From NCBI GenBank assembly GCA_030040855.1, contig JASHSL010000259.1, forward strand, positions 1 to 37,645: a stretch of 37,645 bases of DNA. Direction: 5' to 3'. Shown piece after piece: positions 21,109 to 30,495 of the stretch; the stretch's first letter is position 1, and every line of letters starts with the position of its first letter. The stretch comes from Terriglobales bacterium (GTDB lineage: Bacteria > Acidobacteriota > Terriglobia > Terriglobales > Acidobacteriaceae). Both the position numbers and the translations under genes were made by a program. The notes below the pieces were generated by a model. The model did not search any database. It was not told where the DNA came from and was given only the letters and a program-made list of their open reading frames with translations.

Positions 21109-22104
21109 GTGAGCCAAATCGTGCGCGCCAAGATCACTGCTCTAGGAACCTATGTTCCGCCCCGCCTGTTGACCAACGCGGATCTGGAAAAGATGGTGGA
21201 GACGAGCGATCAATGGATCATCGAGCGAGTGGGGATTCGGGAGCGGCATATTGTGGACAAAGGCGTTGCCACCAGTGATTTGGGAGTGCAGGCGGCGAAG
21301 CGGGCGTTGGCGGAGCGGGGCATCGCACCCTCGGATCTTGAGGCTATCATCGTGGCCACGGTCACACCGGATATGCTGTTTCCATGCTCGGCCTGCCTGG
21401 TGCAGCACAAGCTGGGCGCGAAACGGGTCTGGGGATTCGACTTGAATGCGGCCTGTTCCTCGTTCCTCTATGCCCTGCAAGTGGGGTCGCGATTCATTGC
21501 CTCGGGAGTGCACAAGAAAGTCATGGTGATCGGCGCCGACGTGATGTCGTCCATCATCGACTACACCGACCGCGCAACCTGCGTCATTTTCGGAGATGGT
21601 GCCGGAGCCGTGATCCTCGAACCGGCCGAGGACTCCTTGGGCGTCATCGATTTCCTGCATGAAGTGGATGGATCTGGAGGGTGCTCGCTGTTCATGCCGG
21701 GGGGAGGCAGCCTCAATCCGGCGAGCCACGAAACCGTCAACCAAAAGATGCACTATGTCCACCAGGACGGCCAGGCGGTCTTCAAGTTTGCCGTTCGCAA
21801 AATGGCGGAGCTCTGCGAGGAGCTACTCAAACGCAATGGCTTGACGTCGGATGACATTGACGTTTTTGTTCCTCATCAGGCCAACAAAAGGATCATCACC
21901 GCGACCGCGGATCGCTTGGGGATGCCGATCGAAAAGGTGATTATCGACATCGACCGCTATGGCAACACAACCTCCGCTACAATACCTCTCGCCATGAATA
22001 GCGCGCGTCAGCAAGGCAAGCTGAACAAGGGCGATTTAGCGCTGCTGGCTGCGGTTGGTGCAGGCTTCACGGTCGGCACCGCCCTGGTCCGCTGGGCATA
22101 TTAA
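21109..22104 (+). CDS. fabH: Beta-ketoacyl-ACP synthase III
   Basis: [29 protein letters not shown], active-site NAACSSF, and HQAN and GNTSSA-like (GNTTSAT) motifs. GTG start with GGAG 10 nt upstream. Confidence 0.92.
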
Positions 22105-22347
22105 GAGCCTCCCCTGTCGAGCGGTAGCGTCGACTCTTGACATAAATGCCGGCAGCGCAGTGCAAACGACCCTATCAAACTCCCCTGATCGCGACATGCG
22201 CGCTCACCCCGCCTCTTGATCTCCGCCAGTCTCGCTAGAGGGCATGGGTGTAGTGCGAGGAGGATGAAAAGTGCTGTTCTGCACTCCTCTGATCTCTCTC
22301 ACCTGAAATCTCGTCCCGGTCTCAACGGGAACCTGCAGACCACTTTC

Positions 22348-22357
22348 TGCGTATACT
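22348..22357 (+). promoter_or_regulatory. Putative -10 region TGCGTATACT upstream of the ABC ATPase gene
   Basis: It lies 25 nt upstream of ATG 22383, with GAGGAG between it and the start codon. Confidence 0.3.
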
Positions 22358-22382
22358 CAGATATTGTTGGATAGAGGAGTGC

Positions 22383-23279
22383 ATGGAACTTCGAATCAAT
22401 AATCTCTGCAAAAGATATGGCAACAGCGTGCAAGCGCTGCACAACGTTTCGCTAACGATTCCGCTAGGCATGTTTGGCTTGCTCGGGCCTAACGGTGCGG
22501 GCAAATCCACCCTGATGCGAACCCTGGCAACTCTGCAGGAGGCGGATAGCGGAACTGCAACACTTGATGGAATCGACGTCCTAAAACAGAAAGACGACGT
22601 ACGCCGCGTGCTCGGATACTTGCCGCAGGAATTCGGCTTGTATCCCAAGGTCTCTGCAGAGAATTTGCTGATGCACTTCGCCGCCCTGAAAGGAATCAGG
22701 AAAACGCGGCGCGAAGTGGTGAATGCACTGTTGCAACAGACCAATCTGTGGGAGCATCGCCGGAAGCCTCTCGGCAGTTTCTCTGGCGGCATGAAGCAAC
22801 GCTTCGGCATCGCGCAAGCCCTCTTGGGCGATCCTCGCCTGATCATCGTGGACGAACCCACGGCCGGCCTCGACCCCGAGGAGCGCGTTCGGTTCCATAA
22901 CCTGCTCAGCGCCATCGGACAAAACATCATCGTCATTCTTTCTACCCATATCGTTTCCGATGTCAGCGACCTATGCGGGCGAATGGCGATTATTCACCAG
23001 GGGCGGGTCCTGCTCGCGGGTGAACCCGCCACCCTTGTGGCGGAACTTCAAGGGCGGATATGGAAGAAAGCAATTGATGCCAGTGAGCTAGCCAGGAGTG
23101 GGGAACAATTTCAAGTGGTCATGGTGCGACTCTTCGCCGGAAAGACCCTGATCCATGTCCTCAGCGATGGGCAGCCGGGAGCAGGGTTCGAGCCTGTTCT
23201 TCCCGATCTGGAGGATCTGTACTTCGCAGCGATCCGCGGCTTCCTGAGTAAGCCGGCGCTGGCCGCGCCACTGAATTAG
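22383..23279 (+). CDS. ABC transporter ATP-binding protein (ABC-2 subfamily type) with a C-terminal extension of about 80 aa
   Basis: Walker A GPNGAGKST, signature FSGGMKQR, Walker B LIIVDEPTAGLD, H-loop STHIV. GAGGAG lies 3 nt upstream of the ATG. The stop is 4 nt before the next ORF. Confidence 0.9.
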   Translation: MELRINNLCKRYGNSVQALHNVSLTIPLGMFGLLGPNGAGKSTLMRTLATLQEADSGTATLDGIDVLKQKDDVRRVLGYLPQEFGLYPKVSAENLLMHFAALKGIRKTRREVVNALLQQTNLWEHRRKPLGSFSGGMKQRFGIAQALLGDPRLIIVDEPTAGLDPEERVRFHNLLSAIGQNIIVILSTHIVSDVSDLCGRMAIIHQGRVLLAGEPATLVAELQGRIWKKAIDASELARSGEQFQVVMVRLFAGKTLIHVLSDGQPGAGFEPVLPDLEDLYFAAIRGFLSKPALAAPLN

Positions 23280-23283
23280 TTCC

Positions 23284-26200
23284 ATGGTTCTCACCATTGC
23301 GGGCTTCGAATGTGGTCAGAGACTGCAGCGCATCTCCACCTACGTCTATCTTTTCGTCTTTTGCGGATTGGGATATCTATTCACTCTAATGTCGGGCGGT
23401 GCGGTGCCGGGCGCTAGCGTCGAGTTTGGGACCGGGGGCAAGGTTCTACTGAACTCTCCTTTTGCCCTGGATATCATCATCGCCTATGTGAGCTTCTTCG
23501 GCGTGGTGGTGACGGCCGCCATCGCTGGACAAGCAACCTTTCAGGATGTCGACTATCGTGCTACGGATTTCTTCTTTACTGCACCGATTACCAAGTTTGA
23601 CTATTTGGCAGGCCGCTTTCTTGCTGCGCTGGCCATTCAAGTCGTGATCTTTGCCAGTGTGGGTTTGGGAGCGTGGATCGGCACGCAAATGCCATGGCTC
23701 GATCCTACACGGCTTGGTCCGCAGCGACTCGCTGCATATTTGCACCCGTACTTCACACTTGTTCTGCCGAATCTGATTTTGCTGACGGCAATCTTCTTTG
23801 CCTTGGCGGCATTGGGGAAAAAGATGCTTCCCGTTTATGCTGGCAGCGTCCTTCTGCTGATCGGTTATTTCGTCGCTCAACAACTTTCGAGCAGTGTAAC
23901 CGCCAGCGTGCCTGCGGCGCTGGCGGATCCGTTTGGGGGAAACGCCATGGACCGCCTCACCCGGTATTGGACGCCCTTTGAGCGCAACACACAGCTGATT
24001 CCCTTAACAGGAATCATGCTGTGGAATCGGGTCTTATGGCTGGGCGTAGGCGGAGCACTACTGGCGCTTACGTATGCTAAATTCTCCTTTTCTTACGTTG
24101 CCTGGAGAGGCAAGGGGCGCAAGCCGATTGCTCCGGAGGAAGAGATCACTCCCGTTTCCACCCCAGCTTTGCCCCTGCCAGCTCGAGAGTTTTGCTCTGG
24201 TGCCTCGTTAAGCCAGTTTCTCTCGCTCACTCGTATCCAGTTCAGCGAGACGGTTAAGAATGTTTTCTTCCTTGTTCTTTTGCTGGCAGGCGGCTTATTT
24301 GCAATCTTCGCCGCGAACGGGGTCGGCAATCCGTTTTCCACGCGCACGTACCCGGTGACTTACAACATGCTGCAGTTGTCGAGCGCAGGGTTCTTTGTAT
24401 TTGCGCTTGCCATCATTACCTTTTATGCAGGCGAATTGGTTTGGCGGGAGCGGGATGCGGGTGTCAATCAGATTGTGGATGCTCTCCCGGTCGAGCGCTG
24501 GGTGCTGTTCTCTTCGAAGCTGGCAGCTTTGATGCTGGTGCAGGTGCTGATCCTGCTTGTCACCATGCTCTCAGGCCTCATTGTTCAGATCAGTCATGGT
24601 TACTACCGCTTTCAGCTCGGGCTTTACTTCACCGACCTTTGCGGCGTGCGTCTCATTCAGTTCTGGGTCTTGTGTGTGCTGGCCCTGCTCATTCACACAC
24701 TCGTGAACAACAAATATCTCGGGCATTTCGTGATGGTGCTGTATTTCATCGCTATCATCGCTCTACCCAACATGGGTCTGGAGAACTATCTTTATCGCTT
24801 TGGCCAGGCGCCCCCCTACACCTATTCTGATATGAATGGTTACGGACCATTCGCCGCGCCCTTGTTCTGGTATCACGTTTATTGGGCGATTGCCGCCGTA
24901 GCCCTGGCAATTCTTACAAATCTCTTGTGGGTGCGCTCTACCGAGAGCAGTTTCCCTACGCGGCTAAAACAGGCGGAAGGCCAATTGTCCGGCTCCGCAA
25001 TCGCGGCCCTCGCGTTCTGCTTTGTTCTCTTTCTTGGGGTAGGCAGCTACATTTTCTATAACACCAACATGCTCAATTCCTATCGCACCACCTGGCGCAT
25101 CGACGAGGACCGCGCCCAGTATGAAAGGAAATACCGGCAATATCTGACTGTGCCGCAGCCGCGGATCACTGACGTCAACACTCAGATCGATCTCTACCCT
25201 GAACGCGGGTTCGCTGACATTCGAGGTACGATGATGTTGGAGAACCAAACCTCGGCAGCGATCGATCGCATTCTTCTGACCATCTGGCCGGCGGACCTTG
25301 CGCCTTTGCCCCGCGGACATATTGCGATCGGCAAGCTGGCTTTGTCCAGCGAACAAACTGTCATCCTGCAGGATGACAGACTCGGTTTTTATATCTACCA
25401 AATGCCAACGGCCTTGCCGCCGCATGGCCATATCGCCTTGGATTTTGTGCTGAAGTACGAGAATAAGGGTTTCGTCAATTCTCGACCTAATACCGACATC
25501 GCAGCCAATGGTACTTTCCTCAACAGCGCCTACGCGCCCTTCGTCGGCTACGAAGCAGAGATCGAATTAACTGACGACAGCACGCGACACAAGCACGGAC
25601 TCACCCAACCGAAGCGCATGCCGCCGCTCGAGGATGCCGCCGCACGCAATAACAATGGCGTTTCCGCCGACGCCGACTGGATCAATTTCGAAGGAACGGT
25701 GAGCACCGCCCCGGACCAGAGCGCAATTCTGCCTGGCTACTTGCAGAAGGAATGGCTGGAAAACGGCCGGCGTTACTTCCAGTACAAAATGGATGCGCCC
25801 ATCTTGGCCATCGTTTCCGTGAATTCCGCGCGCTACGCTATACGCCGCGATCGCTGGCGGGATGTAAATCTGGAGATCTACTATCAGCCTGGTCATGAGT
25901 TCGATCTCGACCGGATGATGGACAGCATGAAGGCAACGCTCGAATATTGCAGCACGAATTTCAGCCCTTTCCAGTTTCACCAGGAACGGATCATCGAATT
26001 TCCGCGTTACGGCACATTCGCGGAATCGTTCCCGAACACAATCCCCTATTCCGAGGCGATCGGCTTCATTACCTATGTGGATTCTAAAGACCCGCAGGCT
26101 ATCGATATTCCGTTTTATGTCACCGCGCACGAAGTTGGGCATCAGTGGTGGGCGCATCAGGTCATCGGTGCGAATGTTGAGGGCGGAACCGCAATTGACG

Positions 26201-26898
26201 AAACGCTTGCTCAGTACACGGCGCTCATGGTGATGAAGCATCGTTACGGAGAGCGTTCGATGAGGAGATTTCTCCGTTATGAATTAGACAATTATCTTCG
26301 CGGACGAGCGCAGGAGCGCAACCAGGAGCAACCGCTTTACAAAGTTGATGAGAACCAGGGTTACATTCACTATGGCAAGGGGGCGGTGGTCATGTACGCA
26401 CTGCAGGATTACATCGGCGAGGACAACGTCAACAAAGCGTTAGCCGAGTTCATCCAGGCGTATGCCTTCAAGGGACCGCCCTATGCCGTGTCCCTGGACT
26501 TGATTCGTTATCTGAAGCAGCACACACCCCCCGAGTATCAGTACCTGTACGATGATCTCTTCGAGAACATCACGCTGTACGACAACCGGACCCGTTCTGC
26601 CAGTTACGTCGGGCTGGCTGACGGCAAATATCAGGTGAATCTTGATATCGAAGCGAGAAAGCTCCGCGCCGACGGCAAAGGCGAGGAGCACACGGTTCCC
26701 ATGAACGACTGGATTGACATTGGCGTGCTAGACGCGCAAGGGAACTACCTCTATCTGCAAAAGCATAAGATCGAGAAGGAACGGACGGAACTGACTCTCA
26801 TGGTTGACAAACTCCCATCCAAGGCCGGTATCGACCCTCTGAACAAGCTGATCGACCGCAGCCCGGAGGGCAACGTTATCAACGTAGAGAAGAAGTAA
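23284..26898 (+). CDS. Fusion protein: internally duplicated ABC-2-type permease (13 TM-like segments) plus an M1-family zinc metallopeptidase domain
   Basis: Residues 1 to about 590 contain 13 hydrophobic segments. The two halves align with each other (TAPITKFDYLAGRFLAALAIQVVIF versus ALPVERWVLFSSKLAALMLVQVLIL). Residues from about 600 to 1204 carry an intact gluzincin motif, HEVGHQWWAHQVIGANVEGGTAIDETLAQY. A divergent GxMEN-equivalent is present (YGTFAES). Confidence 0.85.
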   Translation: MVLTIAGFECGQRLQRISTYVYLFVFCGLGYLFTLMSGGAVPGASVEFGTGGKVLLNSPFALDIIIAYVSFFGVVVTAAIAGQATFQDVDYRATDFFFTAPITKFDYLAGRFLAALAIQVVIFASVGLGAWIGTQMPWLDPTRLGPQRLAAYLHPYFTLVLPNLILLTAIFFALAALGKKMLPVYAGSVLLLIGYFVAQQLSSSVTASVPAALADPFGGNAMDRLTRYWTPFERNTQLIPLTGIMLWNRVLWLGVGGALLALTYAKFSFSYVAWRGKGRKPIAPEEEITPVSTPALPLPAREFCSGASLSQFLSLTRIQFSETVKNVFFLVLLLAGGLFAIFAANGVGNPFSTRTYPVTYNMLQLSSAGFFVFALAIITFYAGELVWRERDAGVNQIVDALPVERWVLFSSKLAALMLVQVLILLVTMLSGLIVQISHGYYRFQLGLYFTDLCGVRLIQFWVLCVLALLIHTLVNNKYLGHFVMVLYFIAIIALPNMGLENYLYRFGQAPPYTYSDMNGYGPFAAPLFWYHVYWAIAAVALAILTNLLWVRSTESSFPTRLKQAEGQLSGSAIAALAFCFVLFLGVGSYIFYNTNMLNSYRTTWRIDEDRAQYERKYRQYLTVPQPRITDVNTQIDLYPERGFADIRGTMMLENQTSAAIDRILLTIWPADLAPLPRGHIAIGKLALSSEQTVILQDDRLGFYIYQMPTALPPHGHIALDFVLKYENKGFVNSRPNTDIAANGTFLNSAYAPFVGYEAEIELTDDSTRHKHGLTQPKRMPPLEDAAARNNNGVSADADWINFEGTVSTAPDQSAILPGYLQKEWLENGRRYFQYKMDAPILAIVSVNSARYAIRRDRWRDVNLEIYYQPGHEFDLDRMMDSMKATLEYCSTNFSPFQFHQERIIEFPRYGTFAESFPNTIPYSEAIGFITYVDSKDPQAIDIPFYVTAHEVGHQWWAHQVIGANVEGGTAIDETLAQYTALMVMKHRYGERSMRRFLRYELDNYLRGRAQERNQEQPLYKVDENQGYIHYGKGAVVMYALQDYIGEDNVNKALAEFIQAYAFKGPPYAVSLDLIRYLKQHTPPEYQYLYDDLFENITLYDNRTRSASYVGLADGKYQVNLDIEARKLRADGKGEEHTVPMNDWIDIGVLDAQGNYLYLQKHKIEKERTELTLMVDKLPSKAGIDPLNKLIDRSPEGNVINVEKK

Positions 26899-27018
26899 AA
26901 AAGCTCTCTTGGCAAGATTGGCAAAATCGCCCGAGCAAGCGGACTTCAAACGAGGCTAGAGGAGCTCATTCAACAAAAGGGAGTCCAGACAGCGGCCAAC
27001 GCCCGCGCCCTGCGAAAC

Positions 27019-27035
27019 CGGGGGCGCTGCCCCCG
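27019..27035 (-). terminator. GC-rich hairpin between convergent genes (possible intrinsic terminator of the M1-like/TPR gene)
   Basis: CGGGGGC-GCT-GCCCCCG forms a perfect 7-bp stem. On the minus strand it starts 21 nt after the stop and is followed by GTTTCG, a weak U-tract. Confidence 0.35.
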
Positions 27036-27055
27036 CTCGACTCCATGGCCTGGGT

Positions 27056-29110
27056 TCAGTTTCCGGCTTCCGGTTTGTTCTTGGGCTGCTCGAAGGGCTT
27101 TTGCAGGTATCGCCGAGCTTCATCGAGCGCGCCCTGGGTGTTGTCGTTGGTCTGCAGGGCCTGACGGTACTCGTTGGTTGCGCGTTCGCGCTGTCCGGTG
27201 ATATCGAAGATCTTGCCCAGCTGGATGTGGCTCCACACTTCGGTCCAGCGGGGCTCGCCATCGCCGTTCAGCGCGTCACGGTAGGCATTGGCTGAAGCCT
27301 GATAATTCCTTTGCTGGAAAAATACCTCTGCGATGCGATAGTGGGCAAGTGAGCTGTTCTTGTTCACGTCGAGCGCTTTGTTGTACTCGGCGAGGGCACC
27401 CGCCAGATCTCCCTGCTGCACCAGAGCTTGTCCGCGCTGAATCGAGGCGCGCAGGCGGATATTGGGCGAATTCTTCAGCAGTGCGTTGTTCGGATCGAGC
27501 GATATGCGCCGCGGTTTGCCAAAGGTCTCGACGGTGAAAGCCGAATCCGTGCCCACCACCTCGATCCGCTTCTCTTCCGTTCTGCCGTCGGTATCAATTT
27601 TCAGCAACACCGGCATACGGAACAAGTCGAGATCCTGAGCAATCTGGCCGACGACGCGGAAGCCGGGGGTTTTTTCGGCGCCATTCTTGGGCGGTCCGAC
27701 ACCGCCCAAGCGGTACACCGTGTACTTCACCTTGAACTCGGGAGCTCCGGTCGAATCCAGCCACTGGGAAAAGAACCAGGTCAGCTTCTCGCCATAGTTC
27801 TGCTCGGCGATTTCGCGAAAATCGTCCGCCGAGGCGGGTTTGCCTGCATACTTTGCCGCGAAGGTGCGCATCGTCTGATCGAACTTCTGATCGCCTATCA
27901 CCCAGCGCAACATGTGCAGGATCATCCCTCCTTTATCCGTCACTAGGGTTTGGAACTCAGGCGAGAACCAGTCGAGCTTGCCGACGGTCGATAGCGGCAC
28001 CGTGTCATACGCCAGCGCTCCCACCGACATGTCCTTCACCGCTTCTTCCAGTCCGCTTTGTCCGGCAGCATTTTCGATGTATCTTGCTTCCGAATAGCGA
28101 GCGAAGCCGTCGCACAACCACCAGTCGTCCACCGAGGCGGGACTGACGGAAGCACCCCACCACTGGTGCGCGATGGTGTTTGCCAAAAGCCGGTAATTGA
28201 CCTTCTCGGTGATCGCCCGGCTGGCCATGCCTGCCAGTCCCGGAGCCCACACCGAGGGCACGGTGTCGTCGGGAATCTCGACCACCCTCAGCGTCGTAGA
28301 AGGCGCCGGGCCGTAGAGAGTGACGAAGTAGGTGAATTCCTTGATCGCGGTTTCCGCATATAACGCACCCAGGTTCTGGTGAATCGGCTTAAAGAAAACC
28401 TGGAGATCCACCCCCGCTTCATTGCTTTTGAATTGCTGGAAGGTCCCGGCAATGATGGTCCCCGGAAAGCTCGGCTTGCTCCACACAAACGTGAAGGTTT
28501 TGACCGAATCTGTCGGTGTCGTGGTCTTTAAAGCCGGAGTGCTGCTCTCGCTTTCCTCTCCGCTGCCAATCACGGTCATATGGGCCGGTACGGTAACGCT
28601 TATGGTGGCAGTAAAGCGGTTGGTGCCGTAGGCGACCACCGGGAACCAACGGCCGGGGTAGAGCAGGTAGCTGGTGTCGTCGCCCACATAGGCCAGCTTG
28701 AGCCCTTGTACTGGACTGTCATCGGCCGATTCAAGCGTCCCGTCATAGTCAAAGTTCAGGCTGCCAGACTCGTCTTTGTTGAGTGGCTTCAGCAACTGGA
28801 CGCGCACGGTCGAATCCTGGGTAATGCGCTCGGCGCTGAGGGGCTTGCCACTGTCATCGCTCACCTTGTTCAAGCGCAGATCATTGTTCAGTTGAAAAAT
28901 GGCGACATTGGTGCTCTCGAGCGCCGTGAACCTGACTTTGACATGAGCGGCGAGCTTGTGGATGTGGGGGGTAAGCTCAGCATTGATCTGATAATCGTCA
29001 ACCTGAAGGCGAACTTTCTCAGCAGCCCACGCCGGCAACGCCAACAGCAAAAGCAAAAATGCGAAATGACAGATAGGGACTCGGCGCGCGGGCCGAACTC
29101 GACCGAGCAT
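27056..29110 (-). CDS. Secreted M1-peptidase-like protein with a degenerate active site and C-terminal TPR repeats
   Basis: Signal peptide MLGRVRPARRVPICHFAFLLLLLALPAWA/AE begins at ATG 29110, with GGGGAG 11 nt upstream. The M1 fold signature LLANTIAHQWWGASVSPASVDDWWLCDGFARY has NTIAH in place of HEXXH and D in place of the distal E. The C-terminal 130 or so aa are TPR-like (GDLAGALAEYNKALDVNKNSSLAHYRIAEVFFQQRNYQASANAYRDAL). The track ORF to 29476 overlaps lpxB and is rejected. Confidence 0.8.
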   Translation of the reverse strand: MLGRVRPARRVPICHFAFLLLLLALPAWAAEKVRLQVDDYQINAELTPHIHKLAAHVKVRFTALESTNVAIFQLNNDLRLNKVSDDSGKPLSAERITQDSTVRVQLLKPLNKDESGSLNFDYDGTLESADDSPVQGLKLAYVGDDTSYLLYPGRWFPVVAYGTNRFTATISVTVPAHMTVIGSGEESESSTPALKTTTPTDSVKTFTFVWSKPSFPGTIIAGTFQQFKSNEAGVDLQVFFKPIHQNLGALYAETAIKEFTYFVTLYGPAPSTTLRVVEIPDDTVPSVWAPGLAGMASRAITEKVNYRLLANTIAHQWWGASVSPASVDDWWLCDGFARYSEARYIENAAGQSGLEEAVKDMSVGALAYDTVPLSTVGKLDWFSPEFQTLVTDKGGMILHMLRWVIGDQKFDQTMRTFAAKYAGKPASADDFREIAEQNYGEKLTWFFSQWLDSTGAPEFKVKYTVYRLGGVGPPKNGAEKTPGFRVVGQIAQDLDLFRMPVLLKIDTDGRTEEKRIEVVGTDSAFTVETFGKPRRISLDPNNALLKNSPNIRLRASIQRGQALVQQGDLAGALAEYNKALDVNKNSSLAHYRIAEVFFQQRNYQASANAYRDALNGDGEPRWTEVWSHIQLGKIFDITGQRERATNEYRQALQTNDNTQGALDEARRYLQKPFEQPKNKPEAGN

Positions 29111-29211
29111 CAAAACCGTATCTCCCCGAGGTTCTCTCACTATGATGAAGATTTTGGCCCAAAAGATGCTGGCCGCACAAGCCTGAATACTGAAAACGAA
29201 GAGCTCCCTGT

Positions 29212-30495
29212 CTAACGTCTCCGTTCCAGCCAAAGCCGGAGAATGGTCTCGGCGGCCCGCTCTGCAGGGGAGGCACCGCCGGGATTGGGCCCGCGCAGCG
29301 AGTCCCTGACCTGCGTCAGACCCTCGATCATCCCTGCCCGCACCGGGCCGTCGGCCAGGATGGTTTTCAGCTTGCCAACGACATTTGGGGCGGTGAAGTC
29401 CCGCTGCACCAGTTCGGGGACCACTTCTCTGCCTGCGATCAAGTTCACCATGGCCAGATAGGGGACTTTCACCCACGGGCGCCCCAAAGCATAGGTGAGC
29501 GAGCTGACCCGGTAAACCATGACAAATGGGGTTCCCACGATTGCGGCTTCGACGGTGGCAGTGCCGCTGGCAATGATGCCGCCGCGGGAGTAGGTTAAGG
29601 CAGGTAGACTGTCACTGACAAAGTGGATGGGCGGGCGGCTGCCAATCAGGTTTTCGAGCCACGACCGGCTGAGGGTCGGGGCAACCGGCAGCAGGAACTC
29701 GTATGCCGTACCCAGCTGAGAGGCCGCCTCGAGGATCGTAGGCAAGTTCATGCGCACTTCTTTCTCTCGACTGCCAGGCATGAGGGTGATCCAGGGCTTG
29801 TCGGGGTCGAGTCCGTGCTGGGCGGCATAACTGGCTCGCGTGCTTCCCGGCGGCGGCAGATTGGCCAGCGGATGGCCGATGAAGGTGGCATCCACCCCGC
29901 GATCGCGGTAGAAGCGTTCTTCGAACGGGAAAATCACCAGTGCCTTGGCAATATAGCGGCGCAGCAGCCGGACGCGCCCTTGCCTCCAGGCCCAGAATTG
30001 CGGACACACGTAGTAGACGACCGGAACGCCGCGCTTATGCATCTGGCGCGCCACCCTCCAATTGAAGGCTGGCGAATCGATGACCACGGCGACATCGGGC
30101 CGGCGACGGTCGGCTTCGGCAATGAGGCTGGCAAAGAGCCCGTAGATTTTCGGCAGATGGCTAAGGATTTCTGTGATGCCGACCACGGCAAGCTCGCGTG
30201 CGTCGACAACGGCGTCAAAACCGGCGGCTCGCATGCGGTCTCCGCCGACCCCAAAGAATTCGAGCCGCTCCCCGGGCTGGCTGTTTTCTCGGGAGCTCGA
30301 GGTCGGCACTAGGAAGCCACCGTCGGCAGCGGAGACGGGGCCGTTTCCACGGCAAAGCTTGCCGGCCATGTGGCGCAGCGCCGCGATCAGTTGCCCCCCG
30401 TACATTTCGCCGGAGGCTTCGCCGGCCGAGATCAGAATTCTCACACTAGTATTGTGACATTCCCCCTGGCGCCGGGGGCATGGCTCCATCTGCAA
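29212..30495 (-). CDS. lpxB: Lipid-A-disaccharide synthase
   Basis: ILISAGEASGEMYG, FFGVGGDRM, YYVCPQFWAWRQGR and FIGHPL motifs. The start is TTG 30495 (GGAGG 6 nt upstream), ATG 30489 or GTG 30444. I keep the SD-supported one. Confidence 0.88.
   Translation of the reverse strand: MQMEPCPRRQGECHNTSVRILISAGEASGEMYGGQLIAALRHMAGKLCRGNGPVSAADGGFLVPTSSSRENSQPGERLEFFGVGGDRMRAAGFDAVVDARELAVVGITEILSHLPKIYGLFASLIAEADRRRPDVAVVIDSPAFNWRVARQMHKRGVPVVYYVCPQFWAWRQGRVRLLRRYIAKALVIFPFEERFYRDRGVDATFIGHPLANLPPPGSTRASYAAQHGLDPDKPWITLMPGSREKEVRMNLPTILEAASQLGTAYEFLLPVAPTLSRSWLENLIGSRPPIHFVSDSLPALTYSRGGIIASGTATVEAAIVGTPFVMVYRVSSLTYALGRPWVKVPYLAMVNLIAGREVVPELVQRDFTAPNVVGKLKTILADGPVRAGMIEGLTQVRDSLRGPNPGGASPAERAAETILRLWLERRR

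Follow-up and report, generated by a model that had tools for sequence, protein, structure and literature searches.

An lpxB-linked family of exported M1–TPR proteins with a degenerate zinc-peptidase site in Acidobacteriota

What does an exported protein do when it has an M1 aminopeptidase fold but not the residues needed for catalysis, and with which genes does it belong? This question is raised by a gene on the minus strand, at positions 27056–29110, of a 37,645-nucleotide (nt) stretch of Terriglobales DNA (contig JASHSL010000259.1), referred to here as the window. The gene encodes a 684-amino-acid (aa) protein in which an M1 peptidase part is followed by tetratricopeptide repeats (TPR), hereafter M1–TPR. 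A first-pass annotation of the window, made from the letters alone, had described the product as an exported, non-catalytic M1 scaffold, and the degenerate site and the signal peptide reported below argue for that description. The same annotation had tied the gene to the ABC–M1 fusion next to it as one functional module, a proposal that did not survive comparison with other loci. The conserved genomic partner of the M1–TPR gene is lpxB.

In the M1 part, the zinc motif HExxH-x18-E is replaced by N311-T312-I-A-H315...D334, encoded at 28109–28180 on the minus strand. The DNA from 28187 to 28092 on that strand encodes LLANTIAHQWWGASVSPASVDDWWLCDGFARY, with NTIAH beginning at 28180. Residue equivalences were taken from a HMMER alignment to M1dr (6a8z/6iff, E about 1e-16), a zinc protease whose ligands are H322, H326 and E345 (PMC10000809). 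In this alignment N311 stands at the position of the first zinc His, T312 at that of the catalytic Glu, H315 at that of the second zinc His and D334 at that of the zinc Glu. The DNA reading and the alignments to the Pfam M1 profile and to M1dr thus agree with the first-pass annotation, which had read NTIAH..D instead of HEXXH..E in this open reading frame (ORF). Motif columns across homologues were taken by hidden Markov model (HMM) or MAFFT column extraction, and HExxH is found in none of the 119 closest homologues (74–92% identity). Furthermore, the site of the transition-state-stabilising Tyr (Y-x-K-G) of M1 enzymes is occupied by T391 (27938–27940, minus strand) according to the alignments; the same column holds Tyr in M1dr and in 12 of 12 canonical M1 representatives. 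At the position of the GxMEN strand the protein reads GLAGMAS (aa 291–297, 28220–28240, minus strand), without the Glu and the Asn, and a beta strand is still predicted at residues 292–296. The loss of this Glu had been counted as a further sign of inactivity; it is real, but GxMEN is likewise missing from zinc-intact relatives and from M1dr and hence its loss is not diagnostic in this branch. A complete zinc site supplied by other residues had been named as the observation that would speak against a dead enzyme, and alignment columns and the conservation profile, the two sources consulted, display no conserved His or Cys elsewhere in domain II. By homology the protein has an M1 fold, it lacks on three catalytic counts what membership of the peptidase family requires, and it is classed, from its sequence, as an M1 non-peptidase homologue.

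The same protein is predicted to be Sec-exported and periplasmic. Residues 1–30 (29021–29110, minus strand) form a tripartite signal peptide with an AXA site, read by inspection as MLGRVRPARRV / PICHFAFLLLLLALP / AWA–AEK, that is an R-rich n-region, a Leu-rich core and the predicted cleavage motif. The ALPAWA/AE site had already been pointed out in the first-pass annotation, and the AWA/AEK pattern is kept across orthologues. Downstream of it, the Pfam model PF01433 (Peptidase_M1) matches residues 306–450 with an E-value of 8.5e-18 and 65.2 bits against a cut-off of 27.7, and the TPR-like C-terminus that had been described is recovered at residues 554–660 by five TPR models, all above their curated cut-offs: TPR_2 (40.7 bits, cut-off 27), TPR_11 (35.1, 26.8), TPR_16 (33.5, 32.7), TPR_8 (31, 25.7) and TPR_1 (28.2, 27.8). 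None of the curated NCBIfam models attains its cut-off on the 684-aa protein.

AlphaFold2, run on a 115-sequence alignment, gave a model with a predicted local distance difference test score (pLDDT) of 88.6 and a predicted TM-score (pTM) of 0.84. Apart from an isolated low-confidence signal helix at residues 11–28, the model displays four domains, all encoded on the minus strand. Domain I, the M1 N-terminal beta domain (aa 35–240, 28391–29008), is modelled with a pLDDT of about 90, resembles IRAP/ERAP in Foldseek and gives a weak Peptidase_M1_N match in Pfam. Domain II (aa 242–452, 27755–28387) is thermolysin-like without the catalytic residues, as indicated by PF01433, the M1dr alignment, AlphaFold2 and Foldseek. 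Domain III (aa 459–538, 27497–27736) is a beta sandwich in AlphaFold2 and Foldseek, and domain IV (aa 549–670, 27101–27466) consists of seven predicted helices, about 3.5 TPR. On Foldseek the whole model matches IRAP, ERAP1, ERAP2 and APN at an E-value of 5e-31, with a TMq of 0.64 and about 680 or more aligned columns. Given this four-domain match, the TPR would therefore sit where helical domain IV caps the substrate cavity of M1 enzymes. Domain IV is also the best-conserved part of the protein: when the three clades described below are given equal weight, conservation of 95% or more is reached in 26% of its columns, compared with 10–15% in the other domains.

The protein belongs to a large family. 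A search with its M1 part returned at least 8000 homologues, of which the best 120 matches are full-length, share 74–100% identity and come from Terriglobales/Acidobacteriaceae metagenome bins, mostly under the labels 'aminopeptidase N' or 'M1 family aminopeptidase'. When representatives at 50% identity were searched exhaustively with HMMER, 259 clusters were obtained at E ≤ 1e-30, and their full-length members have a common architecture of about 660–720 aa, made of a signal peptide, the M1 domains, the beta domain and the TPR. In a scan of one genome per species, with a 6-sequence alignment as query, at least 600 stretches were matched and 592 of the 600 listed encode a relative. The window protein carries the features of the family, namely the signal peptide, M1 domains I–III and the TPR motif NGD..P.W.EVWSH..LGKIFD..GQR.RA..EY. 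Wherever the source names the organism, the family is so far found only in Acidobacteriota. Pairwise dN/dS among five orthologues is 0.05–0.10 and the gene is under strong purifying selection.

Across this family the site takes very different forms. In the clade of the window protein (74–100% identity to it), exactly NTxxH..D is present in 108 of 119 members and the Tyr position is Thr in all 119. The P0138 clade, at about 35% identity to the window protein, has RRxxY..D in 90 of 120 members with Ala or Gly at the Tyr position. The P0123 clade, at about 45% identity, has HExxH..E in 101 of 120 members, and 118 of 120 carry Phe in place of the Tyr. Further representatives read NQxxR..N, RExxY..Q, KLxxN..D, DLxxH..D and more. 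A neighbour-joining tree built from Kimura distances, in which the count of independent losses is indicative only, places the M1–TPR family apart from the canonical M1 proteins, with the HExxH members nested among degenerate ones. None of the three sampled clades has the transition-state Tyr, and the ancestor of the family was therefore probably already impaired in catalysis. The pattern of motifs points to several independent losses of the zinc ligands after this probable ancestral loss of the Tyr, and thus to a repeated loss of catalysis within one orthologous family.

Within the P0123 clade the ligands are eroded in 19 of the 120 members, to QExxH..D, YExxE..E and other forms, with an overall identity of about 80% (P0419 compared with P0390; L089), and site decay appears to be still ongoing there.

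All three clades sit downstream of lpxB. In the window the lipid-A-disaccharide synthase gene lies at 29212–30495 on the minus strand, 101 nt upstream of the M1–TPR gene, and is assigned by Pfam LpxB (E 1e-85) and TIGR00215 (245 bits, cut-off 190). Of 86 informative loci, 79 have lpxB as the immediate upstream neighbour in the same orientation (median gap about 176 nt), and in 4 it stands further upstream. The two genes often lie almost end to end or overlap. The loci of the genome scan are the 80 best and are all from Terriglobales, the distant clades being sampled by five contig look-ups only. These look-ups show that lpxB adjacency persists down to about 35% protein identity: L085–L087 share the gene order mnmA–lpxB–M1TPR, where lpxB and the M1–TPR gene are 12 nt apart in L085 and overlap, stop codon over start codon, by 4 nt in L086 and 7 nt in L087, and L088 and L089, from the HExxH clade, have lpxB upstream as well, with two MsbA-type exporters preceding L088. 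In an unbiased census of neighbours, 68 of 88 loci have a co-oriented ABC exporter on the upstream side, with MsbA as its best match below the curated cut-off. One such exporter, at L018 2281–4260, reaches 440 bits with MsbA against a cut-off of 602 bits.

In the RRxxY..D clade a small ICMT/PEMT-like membrane protein, then a certified lpxD, follow the M1–TPR gene in L085 (10041–10586 and 10685–11719) and in L087 (10063–10602 and 12686–13726). In NCBIfam the small protein is matched best by LmtA, the lipid A 1-phosphate methyltransferase of Leptospira, though weakly and below the cut-off. With this LmtA-like gene and the certified lpxD downstream, lipid A genes would stand on both sides of the M1–TPR gene in that clade. 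In some Terriglobales, as in L001 (5425–7164) and L002 (3730–5499), an Acidobacteria-specific VWA-domain protein (TIGR03436, above its cut-off) lies between the MsbA-like exporter and lpxB. The position of the MsbA-like exporter is filled by oppB and oppC in the window, in L004 and in L005, and since this adjacency is limited to these three loci the opp genes were rejected as functional partners.

Among known proteins, IRAP, ERAP1/2, APN and PepN share with the window protein the four-domain fold and the framework round the metal site, QWWG and W.D.WL..GFA.Y. In contrast to them it is without HExxH...E, the catalytic Tyr and GxMEN, is predicted to be periplasmic and is encoded by an lpxB-linked gene, and its domain IV is a short TPR recognisable in sequence where theirs is long and ARM/HEAT-like. 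The nearest solved relative by sequence is M1dr, the two-domain M1 zinc protease of Deinococcus radiodurans (E 5e-17 over residues 100–456), which also does without canonical GxMEN but, unlike the window protein, binds zinc, keeps the Tyr and has two domains only and no TPR. A sequence match to Taf2 was found as well (6hqa_A, E 3.8e-7). TAF2 of TFIID is non-catalytic and uses the M1 fold for protein binding, and the fold is likewise reused for protein binding in yeast Tma108 (PMC11266112). Both of these eukaryotic proteins are cytosolic or nuclear, have neither signal peptide nor TPR and are not orthologous to the window protein. The known M1 pseudopeptidases are eukaryotic (Tma108, TAF2), and no account of a bacterial M1 pseudopeptidase, or of an lpxB-linked M1/TPR protein, turned up in full-text literature searches.

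The closest likeness in architecture and context is offered by BepA, a periplasmic M48 zinc peptidase of E. coli with a C-terminal TPR, which acts in a chaperone-like manner in LptD maturation through an edge beta-strand and retains part of this function when its protease activity is abolished by E137Q (PMC8423444). Like BepA, the window protein joins a predicted periplasmic zincin-type domain to TPR; the corresponding edge strand is retained, and its gene has lipid A genes as neighbours. BepA differs in belonging to M48 and in being catalytically active, no M48 match (PF01435) was found by Pfam in the window protein at E ≤ 0.1, and the likeness is one of analogy only.

From the gene neighbourhood and this analogy we lean slightly towards a role of the M1–TPR protein in lipid A or outer-membrane biogenesis, as a periplasmic adaptor or chaperone without catalytic activity. 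Its contribution to the periplasmic assembly of lipid A/lipopolysaccharide (LPS) or of the outer membrane would consist in binding rather than in hydrolysis. Docking onto a partner, such as a BAM or Lpt component, would fall to the TPR domain, while the inactive M1 cleft, in which the edge beta-strand is kept, would accommodate a stretch of unfolded polypeptide or, possibly, a lipid. Lipid A or LPS as the ligand of the M1 cavity is speculative; it is considered as an alternative on the example of LTA4H, where such a cavity can hold lipid. A periplasmic assembly factor encoded in a lipid A operon has a precedent, since skp and bamA lie beside lpxD-fabZ-lpxA-lpxB in the lipid A cluster of E. coli. 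A more far-reaching version can be put forward tentatively and is, taken as a whole, somewhat unlikely. According to it the lpxB-linked M1–TPR protein would be an unrecognised envelope-biogenesis factor, so far of Acidobacteriota only, whose TPR docks onto BAM/Lpt or whose former active site binds LPS or lipid A, and which arose from a zinc peptidase that shed catalysis independently in several lineages since only binding was needed.

Several observations weigh against this envelope reading or against parts of it. The role itself is inferred from gene neighbourhood and from analogy. In E. coli, lpxB has rnhB and dnaE among its neighbours, an example of genes that can stay side by side without working together, and in 3 of the 86 informative loci lpxB is absent nearby. 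Simple consensus scans detected neither promoter nor terminator in the lpxB/M1–TPR gap of the window, a result that is uninformative on co-transcription. The tree carries no support values, being computed without bootstrap, and the Acidobacteriota range relies on sources that name the organism. Finally, N311, H315 and D334 are strongly conserved in the clade of the window protein, with Asp instead at the first of these positions in four homologues, and a residual metal or ligand site in that clade is conceivable.

The last of these points also favours a different explanation, namely that the protein is still a hydrolase or another enzyme working through a non-canonical site, for instance Asn/Asp-His-Asp together with other residues. 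The block around this site, QWWG...DDWWLCDGFARYSE, is nearly invariant in the clade, and LTA4H illustrates that the M1 fold is capable of non-peptidase chemistry. We consider such an enzyme improbable, as the protein has neither the general-base Glu nor the transition-state Tyr, domain II holds no other conserved His or Cys, and the positional orthologues with RRxxY..D, NQxxR..N, KLxxN..D and further variants leave no common catalytic set. Another explanation keeps the non-catalytic periplasmic binding protein and takes its position next to lpxB as inherited gene order, its role lying outside the envelope, for example in peptide sensing or scavenging or in another TPR-mediated process. The imperfect tie between adjacency and function, the three loci without lpxB and the oppB and oppC genes upstream of lpxB in the lineage of the window would fit this explanation, but lpxB adjacency is kept to about 35% identity, with overlapping stop and start codons, more lipid A genes stand on both sides in one clade and the opp adjacency is confined to the window and its two close relatives; a role outside the envelope is thus rated as unlikely. 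That the gene is a decaying pseudogene or an annotation artefact, as the lost catalytic residues might suggest, is scarcely credible in view of the intact 684-codon ORF, the low dN/dS, the thousands of full-length homologues and the confident AlphaFold2 model.

The partnership with the adjacent fusion proposed in the first-pass annotation has to be weighed against the neighbourhood as a whole. According to that proposal the dead M1 part would capture substrates for the active M1 domain of the fusion, regulate it or act on it like an inhibitor, the two being an active and a dead paralogue in one module and in the same low-GC block. The order of genes in the window is fabH (21109–22104, plus strand), an ABC ATPase (22383–23279, plus), an ABC2-permease–M1 fusion (23284–26898, plus), M1–TPR (minus), lpxB (minus), oppC and oppB. 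Both proteins have M1 domains and their genes do lie tail to tail, 157 nt apart (26899–27055), just as had been reported. However, no homologue of the ABC2–M1 fusion is found within 8–10 kb at any of 89 loci holding M1–TPR orthologues (35–92% identity). The reverse test gave the same answer, with no M1–TPR orthologue at 80 metagenome loci carrying ABC2–M1 relatives (35–85% identity), 66 of which retain the ABC ATPase partner. The GC content at third codon positions (GC3) does not support a shared block either: the M1–TPR gene has a GC3 of 0.723, like fabH (0.723), oppC (0.724) and tgpA (0.717), whereas the ABC pair, at 0.657–0.659, lies below these native neighbours. Nor are the two M1 domains a sister pair, since they share 20% identity over 207 aa (E 2e-7), the window protein is nearer to M1dr (E 5e-17) and the M1 domain of the fusion falls outside the M1–TPR family in the tree. 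L005, with a 92% identical orthologue, and L004, with an 88% identical one, display the synteny of the window, with HlyD/CNNM/opp through lpxB, M1–TPR, fabH, tgpA and miaB, and in both of them fabH directly abuts the M1–TPR gene and the segment corresponding to 22112–27051 is absent. Because these loci share the synteny without that segment, and because the GC3 of the ABC pair is lower, the pair is regarded as a recent insertion. From these sequence comparisons it is an independent two-gene unit, placed very recently between fabH and M1–TPR as a lineage-specific insertion of 4.9 kb (22112–27051, plus strand) that is not part of the M1–TPR system. No convincing direct or inverted repeats or mobility genes were found at its ends. 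A functional partnership of the two M1 proteins is hence very improbable.

The M1 domain of the fusion gives only a weak match to the Pfam M1 profile (E 1.6e-9). Its motif, HEVGHQWWAHQVIGANVEGGTAIDETLAQY, has Asp at x18 after HExxH and Glu one residue later (IDE), which makes the third zinc ligand ambiguous.

The analysis bears on annotation as well as on envelope biology. Thousands of M1–TPR proteins are labelled aminopeptidase, an activity that is very unlikely for most of them, and the peptidase inventories of soil Acidobacteriota are inflated to that extent. Pseudo-peptidases are well documented in eukaryotes and a pseudo-peptidase scaffold is of a known kind; it is the size of the M1–TPR family, its apparent phylum specificity and its linkage to lipid A genes that stand out. 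A single positional orthologue that keeps, partly erodes or replaces its zinc site constitutes a natural experiment in the passage from enzyme to scaffold. Moreover, the deep lpxB linkage, together with the MsbA-like exporter and lpxD, would single out the protein as a candidate for a periplasmic component still missing from the picture of envelope assembly, in a phylum that is abundant in soil and in which the biogenesis of the outer membrane has hardly been studied.

Two smaller features concern the ends of the M1–TPR gene. The gene starts at an ATG at 29110, with GGGGAGA 10 nt upstream of it, and stops at 27056. A longer mechanical ORF extends to a GTG at 29476 (29111–29476, 122 extra codons) and was set aside as an artefact of high GC; the start was placed at 29110 because the upstream extension overlaps the 3' end of lpxB and because homologues measure 652–692 aa. 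On the same strand, 20 nt past the stop and within the 157-nt convergent spacer, a GC-rich hairpin, GGGGGC-AGC-GCCCCC (27020–27034), is followed by GGTTTC and, uncalled by the consensus scan, could act as a terminator.

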